Of a stretch of DNA of 39,448 bases, positions 11,796-15,949 are shown piece after piece. A program made the position numbers and the translations under genes. Below the pieces are notes generated by a model. The model did not search any database and was not told where the DNA came from. It saw nothing but the letters and a program-made list of their open reading frames with translations. How positions within the stretch are numbered: position 1 is the stretch's first letter; every line of letters starts with the position of its first letter. This DNA is from an uncultured Clostridia bacterium (GTDB taxonomy: Bacteria; Bacillota; Clostridia; Oscillospirales; CAG-272), in the NCBI GenBank assembly GCA_947632285.1, contig CANROT010000003.1, forward strand, positions 1 to 39,448, in the 5' to 3' direction.

Positions 11796-13436
11796 CTATT
11801 TATCGCGGCTGTGCCGCGTTTTTGACGTGAACTGAGGCAGAGCGCGCAGAACGCAGAGAACTGCGGCGATCACAAGGAGGGCGACGATGCACAGCGTTGG
11901 CACGATCCCGCCGAAGGCGTTATCTGTACCCGGGCTAAAGGCCGTGTCTGCTGCTTCGGGTTCGCGCGCATCAGCTTCAGACCGGGGCTCGGACTCAAGG
12001 CGGCTCTCCTCGGCGCTCACGCTCTCGGAGGCGAGGACGCTTTCCTCAAGGCTGATGCGCTCGGACTCGAGGCGGCTCTCCTCGGCGCTCGCGCTCTCGG
12101 AGGCGAGGACGCTTTCCTCAAGGCTGATGCGCTCGGATTCGGCGCGGCTCTCTTCAACGCGCTGCCGCTCCGCCTCCGCCTCCGCCGCAATCTCCGCGTA
12201 TGACATCGGAATGTTCTCGAACATGTCGCCGCCCTTAATGTCGGCGCCGACCGTCGAGCGGAAGAGCCCGTAGCGGCAGGGGGAATATGTCGTTATCTCG
12301 GAGGCTTTCGTTATTCTGCTTTCCGTGCCGTATATCCAGCCGTAGAACTTTGTCCAGTGCTGGGATCTGTGGCACATAAAGCCGTCCTGCGAGACCCCGA
12401 ACGCCGTTTTCCCGCCGAATTTTTCAAGCGGGATATCCCAGTTCATGACGATCTCGTTTTCCTCCCAGAGGTGGATATATGTCTTCGGCGTGTCCCACAC
12501 GCCGTATTTTTCGGCGGATTCGGGATCGTAGCTCGCGTCCGCCGCGAGCGGCAGCGCCTCCCGCAGCGTCTCGCTGTTTATGATGTGCTGGCCGTGGCCG
12601 TATTCGCCGTTCACGTCATGCCCGACGACGACGTGCGGGCGGAAGCGGCGGAGCGCCTCGACCTGTTTTTTTACGATATAGTCGCGCGAGAATCCGTATG
12701 CTGCCTGCCGGCTGTATGCGTCCGCGGCGTTCTCCGAATAGGAGTCGATTAGCTCGCCCTCGACCGGGTAGCTGCGCACGCCGACCGTCCAAAGGCCGTT
12801 CAGCTGTTCGTGCGGTCTGTCGTGATACGTGTACGGCGAGGTAAAATAAACGACCTCGACCCGATATCCGAGCTCTCCGGCGTAGTAGGGGAGAAGTCCG
12901 GCAAAGAAAAGCTGCTCGTCGTCGACATGAGTCGAGAATAGCACGAGGTCCGCCTCCTCACACGGCGGCTCCCAGACCTGGACCCATGAGGGGAGCGTGC
13001 CCTCGCCGAGCGCGTATATCTCGGAGATCGCCGCCGCGCCGCCCGAAAACGTCAGCGTCAGGGACTTCGGAGAATAGCCAAAAGCCTCCGTGACGTCGAC
13101 ATATTCGTGAAGGAATCCGTCCTTCCCGCAGCCGACGTTGACGGTCCCGTCCGAGAGGGACCACTCGCCGAAGACGCGGTCAAATTCGATATAGAGGGAG
13201 GATATCCCGCTCCCGGCAGAGACGGTGACGGCCCCGCCGTCCGGCAAGGACGCAAACGTCGTCTCGTTTCGGTCTGCTGCGGGCGCGGTCTGCGCGCCGG
13301 GGCAGGTCACGGATATCTCAAGGTTTTCCGCCTCGGTGGGGGTCGCCTCCTCCGCCGAGAGGCTCCCGGACAAAACGGTTACGGCGGCAAGCAGCGAAAA
13401 CAGCATCGCCGGGAATATATCTTTGAAGCGCTTCAA
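11796..13436 (-). CDS. Secreted, C-terminally membrane-anchored PIG-L/LmbE-family de-N-acetylase
   Basis: Signal peptide, STHVDDEQ (HxDD), GEYGHGQH, Glu/Ser-rich stalk, C-terminal TM plus basic tail. Confidence 0.85.
   Translation of the reverse strand: MKRFKDIFPAMLFSLLAAVTVLSGSLSAEEATPTEAENLEISVTCPGAQTAPAADRNETTFASLPDGGAVTVSAGSGISSLYIEFDRVFGEWSLSDGTVNVGCGKDGFLHEYVDVTEAFGYSPKSLTLTFSGGAAAISEIYALGEGTLPSWVQVWEPPCEEADLVLFSTHVDDEQLFFAGLLPYYAGELGYRVEVVYFTSPYTYHDRPHEQLNGLWTVGVRSYPVEGELIDSYSENAADAYSRQAAYGFSRDYIVKKQVEALRRFRPHVVVGHDVNGEYGHGQHIINSETLREALPLAADASYDPESAEKYGVWDTPKTYIHLWEENEIVMNWDIPLEKFGGKTAFGVSQDGFMCHRSQHWTKFYGWIYGTESRITKASEITTYSPCRYGLFRSTVGADIKGGDMFENIPMSYAEIAAEAEAERQRVEESRAESERISLEESVLASESASAEESRLESERISLEESVLASESVSAEESRLESEPRSEADAREPEAADTAFSPGTDNAFGGIVPTLCIVALLVIAAVLCVLRALPQFTSKTRHSRDK
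11988..12140 (-). repeat. 72-bp in-frame tandem duplication in the stalk (ESERISLEESVLASES[AV]SAEESRL x2)
   Basis: Near-identical repeat visible in both DNA and protein. Confidence 0.88.
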
Positions 13437-13472
13437 TGCGAGCCCTCCGATACTTCGACCGTAATCATATTT

Positions 13473-13501
13473 ATTTTACCATAAATCCTTTCGTTGTGCA
13501 A
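13473..13501 (-). promoter_or_regulatory. sigmaA promoter of the envelope operon
   Basis: TTGCAC-17bp-TAAAAT with a TG extension. Confidence 0.6.
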
Positions 13502-13671
13502 GTATTAAAACAGGGAAAGCTAAAAAATTAAGGCATAAAATGTCGACGGTGCGTGGGAACCGGTTACAGCGACACCATATATTATTACATTATTGCGGCG
13601 ATATTATATATCGGTAAAATAAACGGCGGCGAAATTTATGCCGCTGATGCGGGAAATTTTTTCGGGAGGGC

Positions 13672-13700
13672 TTGACATTTCGCCGGCTTTATAATAAAAT
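13672..13700 (+). promoter_or_regulatory. sigmaA promoter of the surface-protein locus
   Basis: TTGACA-17bp-TAAAAT, about 345 bp upstream of the main ATG. Confidence 0.7.
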
Positions 13701-13846
13701 GAAAATGTATAGTTGGGCTTTTCGCCGAATCTTCCTCGACAACGAGCAGTCGCGCGGAGAGGAGGCGGAGGTTCGGCTGTTCAACCAGGTCGTCGGGGCG
13801 CGGCTTCAAATGCCCCGGCGGAATTCCAGTAATCGGGAGGTTTTAT

Positions 13847-13930
13847 ATGAATAAGGTCAAATTATGCTTCCGAAATACGGGGGGGGGGGTATATCCTTTC
13901 AGGTTTGCTGCGCCAAACGGAAGGAACTGA
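13847..13930 (+). CDS. Putative leader peptide (27 aa, MNKVKLCFRNTGGGVYPFRFAAPNGRN) containing a G11 tract
   Basis: GGGAGG RBS at 13835-13840, ATG at 13847, G11 at 13879-13889, TGA at 13928-13930. Confidence 0.55.
   Translation: MNKVKLCFRNTGGGVYPFRFAAPNGRN
13879..13889 (+). repeat. Poly-G homopolymer (G11), candidate slipped-strand switch
   Basis: Longest homopolymer seen in the window. Confidence 0.85.
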
Positions 13931-13959
13931 TCCTCTCGCTGGAAACCGGTTCTTTTTTT
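13923..13959 (+). terminator. Putative attenuator-type terminator in the leader
   Basis: GGAACTG/CGGTTCT stem with inner TCC/GGA pairing, running into a T7 tract; the stem is imperfect. Confidence 0.45.
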
Positions 13960-14044
13960 GACACATACTCCACGGATTCTGCGGGGTTGCCGGGGGTATG
14001 AGATCCCCAAATCCCGACAGAAATCTGTTAAAGGAGAAACAAAG

Positions 14045-15949
14045 ATGGAAAAAACAAGGAAATTCAGGATTTCCAAAACACGGCGCGCGATGCTGATGAG
14101 CGTGCTTTCCATGCTGTTGTGCTGTTCCATGCTCGTAGGAACGACCTTTGCATGGTTTACCGACAGCGTAACGTCCGGCAAAAACAAGATCGTCGCCGGC
14201 AACCTCGACGTGGAGCTGTATCACACGAGCGCATCTGTCGAGGACGAGACGAAGATCGAAGGCAAAACGGATCTGTTCCTTGACGCCGACGGCAAACCGA
14301 TCCTCTGGGAGCCGGGCGTTATCGCTTACGAAAACTTCACCGTGAAGAACGTCGGCAGCCTGGCGCTCAAGTATAAGCTGGCGCTCGATGTTGCCGGGAA
14401 GAACACAGTTACGGTAGACGGCAAGACTCATTCGCTTGACGAGGTCATTCAGGTGGCGTTCATCGAAGGGAAGTTTGAAGGCGACCGCGAGGCTGCTCAA
14501 AAGCTTGATTACAAGCCGCTCGCAGACACGGCGAAGACCGGCGTGCTCCTTCCGAAGGACGAAACCACACCCGATAAGGACACCACATCATTTGCAGTCG
14601 TGCTTTACTGGAAGCCCACCGAAAACGACAACCTCTACAATGTCAACAACGGCAAAAAAACCGACGAGCCGGAGCCGTCCGACCGTCTCTGGATCGAGCT
14701 CGGCGTTGACCTGACAGCTACGCAGTATACATACGAGAACGACAGCTTCAACGACCAGTATGACAAGAACGCCGACGACAACCACGGCAATGTCATCGAG
14801 CTGACCTCCGTCGAAAAAGAAGTCAGCTCCACAGAGCTGACGAGCAGCCCGCTGACCTTCGTATTTGACAACACCGCGCCGCTGCCCGAAGGCGAGCACG
14901 AAAGCACGACGGTCGAATTAGAAGCAGGCGCTCTCGCCGCAGGATCTACGAGCGAAAAGCACACCGTCGATCTGACCATCGAGACCGAGTTTGAAAGTTA
15001 TACGGCTATGCCGGACGGCTTTTCCGGCGTTGCAAAAATCGCCCTTTCTCTCCTTGTTGACGGAGAAGAAGTCCACAATTTTGAAAGCGGAAAGAAAGCG
15101 ACGATCACTACCAAAATACCGGCAGGACTGGAAAATGTTGAAGTCAAATATAACGGCGAAGACGGCGAAGATCCCGACAAAACTGATGTAAAATATGATT
15201 CGGACACCGGTGTGCTCACCTTCAAAACCACGCATTTCAGCGAGTTTGAGGTGATTTGCAAATTCCCTGAGCCGACGTTTGCGCAGTTGAAGAGTGGAAA
15301 AGAACTTTTTAAGACCGGCACCGGAATTTTTAACCAATTGCTTAATTACAAGGAGGTAGACCTGAACATATCTTGGCGCGATGCTAATTATTCGGTAAAG
15401 AAAGTTGTCTTCTGCGATTTTGAGGACTTAGCTTCAAAATATGATTTTACACCCACTTGGAATAGTGGTAAAATTATAAGCGAAAATGTAGAAAACGGGA
15501 AGGAAGCAAGAGTTTTCGTCACTTCAAAGAAGGACGCGATGTATATTTGTGTAGAATCTTCGACCGACATCATCTATCTGAATGAGAATTGTAATGGAAT
15601 GTTCAGCAACTTAGGAGGCGTGACGGAAGTTGATTTCGGCGAAAAGGTTTCCTTTGAAAAAGTTAAGGATTTATACAATTTCTTCAACGCTTGTTCCTCT
15701 TTGACAACGGTTAAATTCGGCGACGTTGACGTTTCAAATGCAACCGATTTCGGGTGCATGTTTGGAGAATGCGAAAGCTTGACGGAGCTTGACCTTTCCG
15801 GCTGGAATACACCGGTAAATGCAAACATTACGAAAATGTTTACTTTGTGCTCTAAGCTCAAAACTGTCTATATCGGCGAAGGCTGGAAACTTTCCAAAAA
15901 CGCTTCTGATTTCGGCAGCCAATTCAATGCAACTTTCCAAACAAAATAA
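14045..15949 (+). CDS. SipW-dependent-type signal peptide (TasA/CalY-like) surface protein with C-terminal BspA/DUF285-type LRR domain
   Basis: N-terminus LLCCSMLVGTTFAWFTDSVTSGKNKIVAGNLDV; ATQYTYENDSF..YD; C-terminal MFxxCxSLxxLDLSxW repeats; AAGGAG RBS before ATG 14045. Confidence 0.85.
   Translation: MEKTRKFRISKTRRAMLMSVLSMLLCCSMLVGTTFAWFTDSVTSGKNKIVAGNLDVELYHTSASVEDETKIEGKTDLFLDADGKPILWEPGVIAYENFTVKNVGSLALKYKLALDVAGKNTVTVDGKTHSLDEVIQVAFIEGKFEGDREAAQKLDYKPLADTAKTGVLLPKDETTPDKDTTSFAVVLYWKPTENDNLYNVNNGKKTDEPEPSDRLWIELGVDLTATQYTYENDSFNDQYDKNADDNHGNVIELTSVEKEVSSTELTSSPLTFVFDNTAPLPEGEHESTTVELEAGALAAGSTSEKHTVDLTIETEFESYTAMPDGFSGVAKIALSLLVDGEEVHNFESGKKATITTKIPAGLENVEVKYNGEDGEDPDKTDVKYDSDTGVLTFKTTHFSEFEVICKFPEPTFAQLKSGKELFKTGTGIFNQLLNYKEVDLNISWRDANYSVKKVVFCDFEDLASKYDFTPTWNSGKIISENVENGKEARVFVTSKKDAMYICVESSTDIIYLNENCNGMFSNLGGVTEVDFGEKVSFEKVKDLYNFFNACSSLTTVKFGDVDVSNATDFGCMFGECESLTELDLSGWNTPVNANITKMFTLCSKLKTVYIGEGWKLSKNASDFGSQFNATFQTK

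Follow-up and report, generated by a model that had tools for sequence, protein, structure and literature searches.

What might a run of 11 G residues be doing in a short open reading frame that lies immediately upstream of an intact surface-protein gene? The question is raised by a 39,448-nt stretch of a contig from an uncultured Clostridia bacterium, referred to below as the window. The corresponding genome assembly, here G000, consists of 213 contigs that comprise 2.21 Mb with 57.6% G+C. The first-pass annotation, made from the letters alone, read this region as a candidate phase-variable attenuator, in which the G tract of a leader peptide would control a transcription terminator. The elements of the region that are relevant to this question include an upstream open reading frame (uORF) with its own Shine-Dalgarno (SD) sequence, a conserved "box," and a two-tier hairpin, as follows.

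13672 to 13700, plus strand: sigma-70-like promoter, TTGACA-17-TAAAAT, found in a scan with 11/12 matches.
13706 to 13782, plus strand: hairpin domain of the 5' leader, preceding the uORF (seen in the MFE and centroid structures of 13705-14050, z -3.6).
13835 to 13840, plus strand: SD sequence of the uORF, GGGAGG, read from the sequence.
13847 to 13930, plus strand: uORF as assembled (G11 frame), 27 codons plus TGA, the "early stop" frame.
13879 to 13889, plus strand: G11 homopolymer, the presumed slippage site.
13894 to 13925, plus strand: variable mid-leader hairpin (fold of -10.4 kcal/mol, z -1.9, with 10 of 200 shuffles as good).
13953 to 13961, plus strand: U7 run ending in the TGA of the G10 frame (13959-13961), the "box stop."
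13963 to 13976, plus strand: the box, a predicted anti-SD strand, with CUCC at 13968-13971 (SD:CUCC pairing P 0.98).
13977 to 14028, plus strand: P2/P3 hairpin, with P3 formed by 13992-13997 and 14003-14008 (match to covariance model R1, 49 bits).
14033 to 14036, plus strand: SD sequence of the main gene, GGAG.
14045 to 15949, plus strand: main gene, coding for a 634-aa SipW-signal protein with a camelysin/TasA-like N terminus and a DUF285/BspA-type C terminus.

The sequence observation behind the first-pass annotation is real. The ribosome-binding site (RBS), the start codon ATG at 13847-13849, the G11 tract, and three frame-dependent stops are all present where that annotation had placed them. 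Read with G11, the frame ends at TGA 13928-13930 (27 aa), which is 31 nt upstream of the box-stop position. Read with G10, it ends at TGA 13959-13961 (37 aa), and with G12, at TGA 13999-14001 (51 aa), which sits in the P3 loop. The promoter that had been claimed at 13672-13700 was recovered as a promoter-like site, and the hairpin claimed at 13894-13925 was reproduced in folding; paralogous leaders also have a hairpin at the latter position, with a different sequence. Promoter-like sites on the plus strand are found in two of the four leaders scanned, those of the window and of its paralogue C152, where the site lies ~180 nt 5' of the tract, and none passed the scan in leaders L001 and L009. 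A second sigma-70 promoter candidate within the leader (TTGACG, in the box region) was dropped, as it has no -10 element downstream.

The main gene appears, from its sequence matches, to encode a SipW-dependent secreted protein of the TasA/camelysin type. The protein matches Peptidase_M73 with 25.3 bits (cut-off, 22.5) and DUF285 with 35.7 bits (cut-off, 25), and its SipW-type signal peptide matches TIGR04088 with 26.6 bits, against a cut-off of 19. Three SipW-type peptidases, with TIGR02228 matches above the cut-off, are encoded in G000. The adjoining gene on the minus strand (11796-13436) codes for a PIG-L-like deacetylase with an acidic tandem repeat near its C terminus; the repeat unit, RISLEESVLASES...AEESRLESE, is present twice.

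The terminator proposed for 13923-13959 does not hold up as the conserved element of this leader. According to the attenuation model, the frame of the leader peptide selects either this hairpin with its T7 run or the competing hairpin. The window does contain both hairpins and the T7 run, and a tract:C-run hairpin followed by U4-U5 is found in four paralogues (C58, C152, C165, and C72c). However, the stem that precedes the T7 run (13924-13952) folds with only -7.8 kcal/mol (z -1.1), a value close to that of shuffled sequences (28 of 200 as good), and both the stem and the T7 run lie within a 16-nt insertion that is missing from 12 of the 12 aligned paralogous leaders. None of the three paralogous leaders scanned has a terminator-like site on the plus strand. 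In the fold of 13950-14050 (-37.9 kcal/mol, z -4.5, with 0 of 200 shuffles as good), the CUCC pairs with GGAG and the U run is bound to CAAAGA, immediately before the main AUG, so that, on this model, the U run is better understood as lengthening the anti-RBS strand. The conserved intrinsic terminator expected of a leader-peptide attenuator is not found, the window hairpin being weak and absent from the paralogues. The conserved mechanism is other than transcription attenuation, which might operate in the window copy alone; as the explanation of the leader, attenuation appears very unlikely. What stands from the first-pass proposal is a leader ORF with a tract of the hypermutable type, located upstream of an intact adhesin ORF and repeated in the genome, and what falls is its terminator/attenuator part.

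That the leader is repeated is evident from a count of homopolymers. Long G/C runs are generally avoided in G000, which contains 1899, 203, and 10 of lengths 5, 6, and 7, respectively, but then 4, 4, 9, and 1 runs of lengths 8, 9, 10, and 11, with the peak at 10. The G tract of the window is far beyond chance and shows the excess over background that marks a contingency locus. Fourteen of the 18 runs of at least 8 residues belong to homologous leaders. The search suggested in the first-pass annotation, for the same leader in front of other SipW-signal genes, was productive, as 13 more copies are found in G000, three in G061, and two in G072, the latter two being genomes of other bacteria described below. 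The 14 leaders of G000 share a common layout. An RBS of the AAAGGAGG type is followed by ATG or GTG, then by 7 to 11 codons, and then by a tract of G8 to G11. A C-rich run comes 7 to 9 nt past the tract, followed by the variable hairpin. Next come the conserved box, (U)AGACGCGCUCCG, the two-tier hairpin P2/P3, and the RBS GGAGUG. The downstream genes are paralogous and start with MKHTKKALL...STFAWFTDSVTSG. A SipW-signal paralogue starts 132 to 155 nt after the tract in 13 of the 14 cases, and the 14th leader runs off its contig. These paralogues are 560 to 940 aa long, and their C-terminal parts vary, comprising DUF285/LRR, an M26-like region, a GLUG motif, or no recognized domain.

Among the 20 paralogue starts in G000, 13 have the full leader, two at contig ends show its 3' part only, one (C205) keeps the 3' element without the uORF start or the tract, and four carry unrelated leaders. 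The covariance model of the 3' element, R1, has 16 matches in this genome. We consider it about an even bet that the window contains a member, and a rather divergent one, of a family of leaders that switch translation.

Paralogues with their leaders form head-to-tail arrays, with four copies on contig C72 and two on contig C104 of G000, three copies within 9 kb on contig C3 of G061, and two within 2 kb on contig C5 of G072. Three G000 contigs end in or beside a leader, and C104 begins inside the tract; therefore, the leader family is probably under-assembled in this genome. In nearly all copies, the uORF RBS is preceded by a pair of GC-rich hairpins (13706-13834 in the window; other examples are L009 and L062), and their letters vary from CCGCCCCUCCC-UUCG-GGGAGGGCGG in the window to CAUCCCC...GGGGGUG in G061 and G072. 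In the leaders of C58, C72c, C152, C165, C40, and C98 (L003, L006, L011, L012, L002, and L007), the uORF SD is embedded in a perfect palindrome of 10 nt that comes in two versions, GAGGTACCTC and GAGGCGCCTC, which differ by a compensating change. The palindrome is paired by RNAalifold, and three double changes fall on the outermost of its three pairs. It could be an RNA hairpin that masks the uORF SD or, alternatively, a DNA operator. GGA sites of the CsrA type, located in the purine-rich stretch, were rejected as a reading of the region because of their lack of conservation.

A further property of the family is the relationship between the reading frames of the uORF and the position of the box. 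All 18 tract-bearing copies with a complete uORF have their own SD and start codon, with a GGAG-type SD located 4 to 12 nt before ATG or GTG, and for these copies all three frames were read past the tract. In 18 of 18, one frame stays open for ~20 codons and meets its first stop at -6 to 0 of the box-stop position, which is 8 to 9 nt 5' of the CUCC of the box (14 nt in G072b). The stop codon is TAG at 0 in 13 of the 18 copies, TAA in two (C58 at 0 and G061a at -4), and TGA in two (the window at 0 and G072b at -6); in C18, the stop of the box frame is at +55 after the tract. Among the remaining 35 frames, 28 end 19 to 44 nt earlier and seven pass the box. The box stop of the window occupies the position homologous to that of the paralogues' TAG, 9 nt 5' of the CUCC, and this TGA at 13959 is kept despite surrounding letters that are unlike those of the family. 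The tract length found in the assemblies puts five of the 18 (C152, C165, C182, G061b, and G072b) in the box-stop frame and 13, including the window, in an early-stop frame. The run-through frame of C152 ends in an ATGA on the main start, and that of C18 ends 17 nt 5' of the start, which is the layout of ordinary translational coupling.

The five copies that have no G run of at least 8 residues (C205, G062a, G062b, G146a, and G146b) all either lack the SD and start or have a stop that precedes the tract position; therefore, the tract and the uORF go together. This association bears on the possibility that the G run acts as RNA, be it as the stem of a hairpin with the C run, as a target of a C/U-rich small RNA in the style of RepG-tlpB, or through a mixture of transcripts made by transcriptional slippage. 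A C-rich run (CCCC, CUCCC, or CCGCCC) is indeed found 7 to 9 nt past the tract in all copies and is paired with it in folds, and the targeting of a leader G-repeat by a small RNA, RepG, has been reported (PMC8295292). A role in RNA alone, however, would not explain why the tract always resides in an ORF with a strong SD, why the tract and the uORF start were lost jointly in five of five copies, or why one frame is open to the box in 18 of 18 copies while only seven of the 35 other frames are. We consider such a role distinctly unlikely.

The tract, which is always inside an ORF with a strong SD, reads GGG GGG GGG in every copy. Such a string resembles the codon runs of amino-acid attenuators, and the leader could be imagined as a fixed peptide whose three or four GGG codons register the supply of glycine or tRNA-Gly, heritable switching playing no part. 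A sensing leader, however, would be intolerant of the changes in the downstream frame that result from tract lengths of 8, 9, 10, and 11. The existence of a defined stop for each length and the homopolymer excess that peaks at 10, a signature of contingency loci, also speak against glycine sensing, which we regard as highly improbable.

The lengths of the tracts have to be read with some care. The four public runs that contain the locus come from one study and are contig-level data with a depth of 2 to 3; none of them spans 13879-13889, and the X3 run pieces stop at 13881 and resume at 13891. Contigs break at tracts, as seen in C104 and in the run contigs on either side of the window tract, and exact lengths are uncertain from low-depth short reads, which would fit an artefact of sequencing or assembly at homopolymers. 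The tracts, however, are internal to contigs and have conserved flanks at 14 loci in this genome and in two other genomes, which makes an artefact barely credible as their source. Among 13 close pairs of paralogues, with flanks at least 80% identical, ten have tracts of unequal length, but the flanks, which are 80 to 93% alike, are too diverged to demonstrate a raised indel rate. MutS and MutL are present and intact in the genome. The run-length distribution and the design of the leader, taken as sequence evidence, suggest that the tract length may switch at the DNA level.

What the position of the ribosome might control becomes apparent from the pairing partners of the box. Its sequence is AGACGCGCUCCG in the family and ACAUACUCCACGG in the window. 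In folds of whole leaders, the main SD is paired with the CUCC of the box at P of at least 0.7 in nine of 13 copies, including the window (0.98), and in folds of the 3' element alone, at P of at least 0.78 in 18 of 21. The box:SD duplex has an energy of -7.3 to -18.4 kcal/mol in 18 of 19 copies, compared to a mean of -4.3 kcal/mol for shuffled SD windows. In the uORF-less C205, the CUCC has become CCCC, and the duplex is left with only -3.4 kcal/mol and P of 0.05. Single compensations are seen in UGCUCC:GGAGCA (G062b) and GCACUCC:GGAGUGU (G061c), and G061a has a 10-bp version of the helix. Co-evolution of the box and the SD is not significant, as cognate pairs average -10.35 kcal/mol versus -10.05 kcal/mol for non-cognate ones, with 697 of 5000 permutations as good; CUCC can pair with GGAG in any combination of copies. 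G062a and G062b retain a strong box:SD helix without a working uORF. Taken together, the folding models place the SD of the main gene in a conserved helix.

The box stop would bring the ribosome onto the sequestering strand of that helix. When the positions that a ribosome would cover at the box stop are barred from pairing in the folding model, the median accessibility of the SD rises from 0.01 to 0.20-0.27, whereas with footprints at the early stops it stays at 0.01 to 0.02. No rise is seen in five of the 14 copies (C152, C98, C58, G061a, and G061b), C40 behaves in the opposite way, and in the window the SD becomes more accessible with a longer footprint only. Masking thus lends partial support, within the limits of the model, to an overlap between the position of the ribosome and the strand that sequesters the SD.

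These observations are consistent with a frame-coded translational switch, which is opened by a ribosome that stops on the box or passes through it, a reading that we hold with about as much belief as doubt. It is built on the anatomy of the leader, the fact that this anatomy recurs, the frame rule, and the pairing predictions, from which we infer the switching of length, the translation of the uORF, and the polarity. The leader would be transcribed together with the surface-protein gene, and the uORF would be well initiated, with the G8-G11 run forming its codons 8 to 12. Strand slippage during replication, adding or removing one G, would then shift the frame past the tract. One open frame would take the ribosome to the stop 8 to 9 nt before the CUCC, which in the window corresponds to G10 and TGA 13959. 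The other frames would mostly end 19 to 44 nt earlier, and the window as assembled (G11) would be of this early kind; in seven copies, one frame would pass through the box, which in the window would require G12. The box:SD pairing would close a stable domain around P2/P3. After an early stop, this helix would remain shut and the gene would be off, whereas a ribosome terminating on the box or passing through it would melt the helix, expose the SD, and turn the gene on. Each of the ~14 paralogues would thereby have its own heritable and reversible switch.

A second pairing of the box complicates the assignment of polarity. The 12-nt box can also pair with the 5' arm and the loop of P3. This helix B is 91% paired (91.1 to 91.6%) across 21 to 25 copies, compared to 33 to 60% when it is slid, and it represents the RNAalifold consensus; for P2/P3 with the box:loop contact, the corresponding values are 85% and at most 53%. 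The box of the window (CAUACUCC) and its P3 loop (GGGGGUAUG) differ from those of the family and are still mutually complementary. The window duplexes have -17.1 kcal/mol for the box with the 5' side of P3 (1.9% of shuffles as good) and -8.6 kcal/mol for the box with the SD (4%). The conserved TAG is also part of helix B, so its conservation goes partly beyond the role of a stop codon. The same device might, therefore, work with reversed polarity, such that after an early stop the free box would pair with P3, at its 5' arm and its loop, while the RNA is being transcribed, leaving the SD free and the gene on. A ribosome parked on the box would instead allow P2/P3 to fold, and once it is released the box would close on the SD and turn the gene off. 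The consensus status of helix B, its retention in the window with other letters, and the fate of the uORF-less G062 copies, which would be constitutively on instead of dead, all argue for this version, and formation of helix B first during transcription would result in such a reverse polarity. On the other side, the nested energy model favors the SD-closed structure A over B by a median of 6.6 kcal/mol, with P(B) of at most 0.03 in 19 of 21 copies. The box:loop contact could also add to the SD-closed form as a pseudoknot.

The polarity in which an early stop leaves the gene off is favored because it fits two further observations, namely, the ATGA overlap of the C152 run-through frame, which points to an activating coupling, and the loss of both the uORF and the CUCC in C205, which is expected if the default state is off. 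The reverse polarity is, in our view, unlikely. Under the favored one, G062a and G062b would be permanently off, and these two copies count against the switch model, as do the contig-level nature of the runs, the intact MutS and MutL, the null result of the co-evolution test, and the uneven outcome of masking.

The leader is also found outside G000, with a patchy distribution. A pattern scan of species genomes revealed it in two further metagenome-assembled genomes (MAGs), and a family-wide scan of 150 genomes added two more. Matches to R1 number three and two in G061 and G062 and two each in G072 and G146. The three copies in G061 have the RBS, ATG, and tracts of G9, G10, and G9, and the two copies in G072, which belongs to another genus of the same family, have tracts of G10 and G11. 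The two copies each in G062 and G146 have no working uORF or tract. In the uORF-less copies L080 and L082 of G146, a long GACATGATGTC-like inverted-repeat run is found in place of the P3 hairpin. The leader is common to several genera, because the housekeeping protein Dus of G061 and G062 shows 52 to 53% identity to that of the window, compared to 58 to 72% within the genus.

Searches with covariance models scored 26 to 150 candidates per genome. R1 found no match in 60 relatives, including 18 genomes of the same genus, among the 66 candidates scored per genome, which are a part of the total. A protein search of 40 relatives detected distant homologues in G039, G049, G052, and G022, and 13 of the 14 matches inspected have leaders without a tract or a uORF. 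No Rfam 15 family reaches its gathering threshold in window positions 13300-14300 or in seven other leaders. A metagenome scan with the box pattern returned no matches; a species with eight exact copies would have matched. With slightly more doubt than belief, we propose that a ribosome end point coded by slippage acts on a leader RNA with two stable states (box:SD and box:hairpin) to switch ~14 intact genes independently and reversibly in translation, generating a combinatorial surface code in a gut Clostridia commensal that has spread patchily among genera, perhaps by transfer.

Most of what is known about phase variation comes from a few Gram-negative pathogens, together with the DNA inversions of Bacteroides and Clostridioides difficile. 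In the latter organism, cwpV codes for a phase-variable surface protein controlled through its leader RNA; there, unlike in the leader described here, a recombinase inverts DNA to create a terminator, and neither a homopolymer nor a uORF is involved. The attenuators of trp and his combine a leader ORF with mutually exclusive pairings, one strand of which is covered by the ribosome. The present leader differs from them in having no conserved intrinsic terminator, in ending at the SD, and in taking the frame as its input in place of tRNA charging. The secM-secA system is an example of SD unmasking controlled by a uORF, with a short translated leader and a helix-held downstream SD. Both secM and ermC respond to secretion or to a drug via a stalling peptide, whereas here the tract length would set the end point. 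The translational attenuation of ermC likewise relies on a short leader, a helix-held SD, and a ribosome whose position decides whether the helix is open (PMC5499644).

The poly-G phasomes of Campylobacter, Neisseria, and Haemophilus have the tract in the regulated ORF or in its promoter (PMC6321876, PMC11955535). They resemble the present family in the exact G8-G11 runs, the many loci, the surface products, and the three length classes. The differences are that here the tract lies in a separate uORF ~140 nt upstream, that the regulated ORF is never frameshifted, and that the host is a Clostridia commensal with MutS and MutL. The G-repeat of tlpB read by RepG is similar in that a length-variable G run in the leader sets the post-transcriptional output, and dissimilar in that the reader is a small RNA, with no uORF involved (PMC8295292). 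Haemophilus influenzae hmw1A also has a repeat in its 5' untranslated region that acts on an adhesin through RNA structure (PMC12721329); the unit there is a heptamer, RNase III processing takes place, and the output is graded with the repeat number and does not involve a reading frame.

Within the full-text literature covered (CC-licensed PMC and bioRxiv), no case of a homopolymeric tract in a uORF controlling a downstream gene was found, and none of phase variation of SipW/TasA-type genes. In its design, the leader brings together two known elements, slippage and the control of RNA folding by the ribosome, in a combination that is new. If the switch model is correct, a poly-G phasome in uncultured gut Clostridia would extend phase variation to a new group, with the regulated genes left intact and the switch carried by a leader of 30 codons. 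The design predicts a code of stop-codon positions that is directly testable, and it has a signature recognizable in metagenomes, consisting of an RBS, a short ORF, a homopolymer of at least 8 residues, and the conserved anti-SD box. Surveys of simple sequence repeats that are confined to coding regions and promoters will overlook such leaders. A module this compact could also be engineered as a stochastic translational switch.

Two other long G runs of G000 have a different setting. A G9 run in contig C13 (19695-19703) splits the frame of a Ser/Thr kinase-like protein (HRDIKAENI...GGGG / ...LIDFGIA), and a G10 run would rejoin it, so that this locus is either a classical phase-variable gene with the tract inside the ORF or a homopolymer miscall. 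A G10 run in contig C82 (6496-6505) is found in AT-rich intergenic DNA beside TATAAT-like words, ~270 nt before a gene whose product has a signal peptide, and may represent a promoter-type tract, that is, another design.
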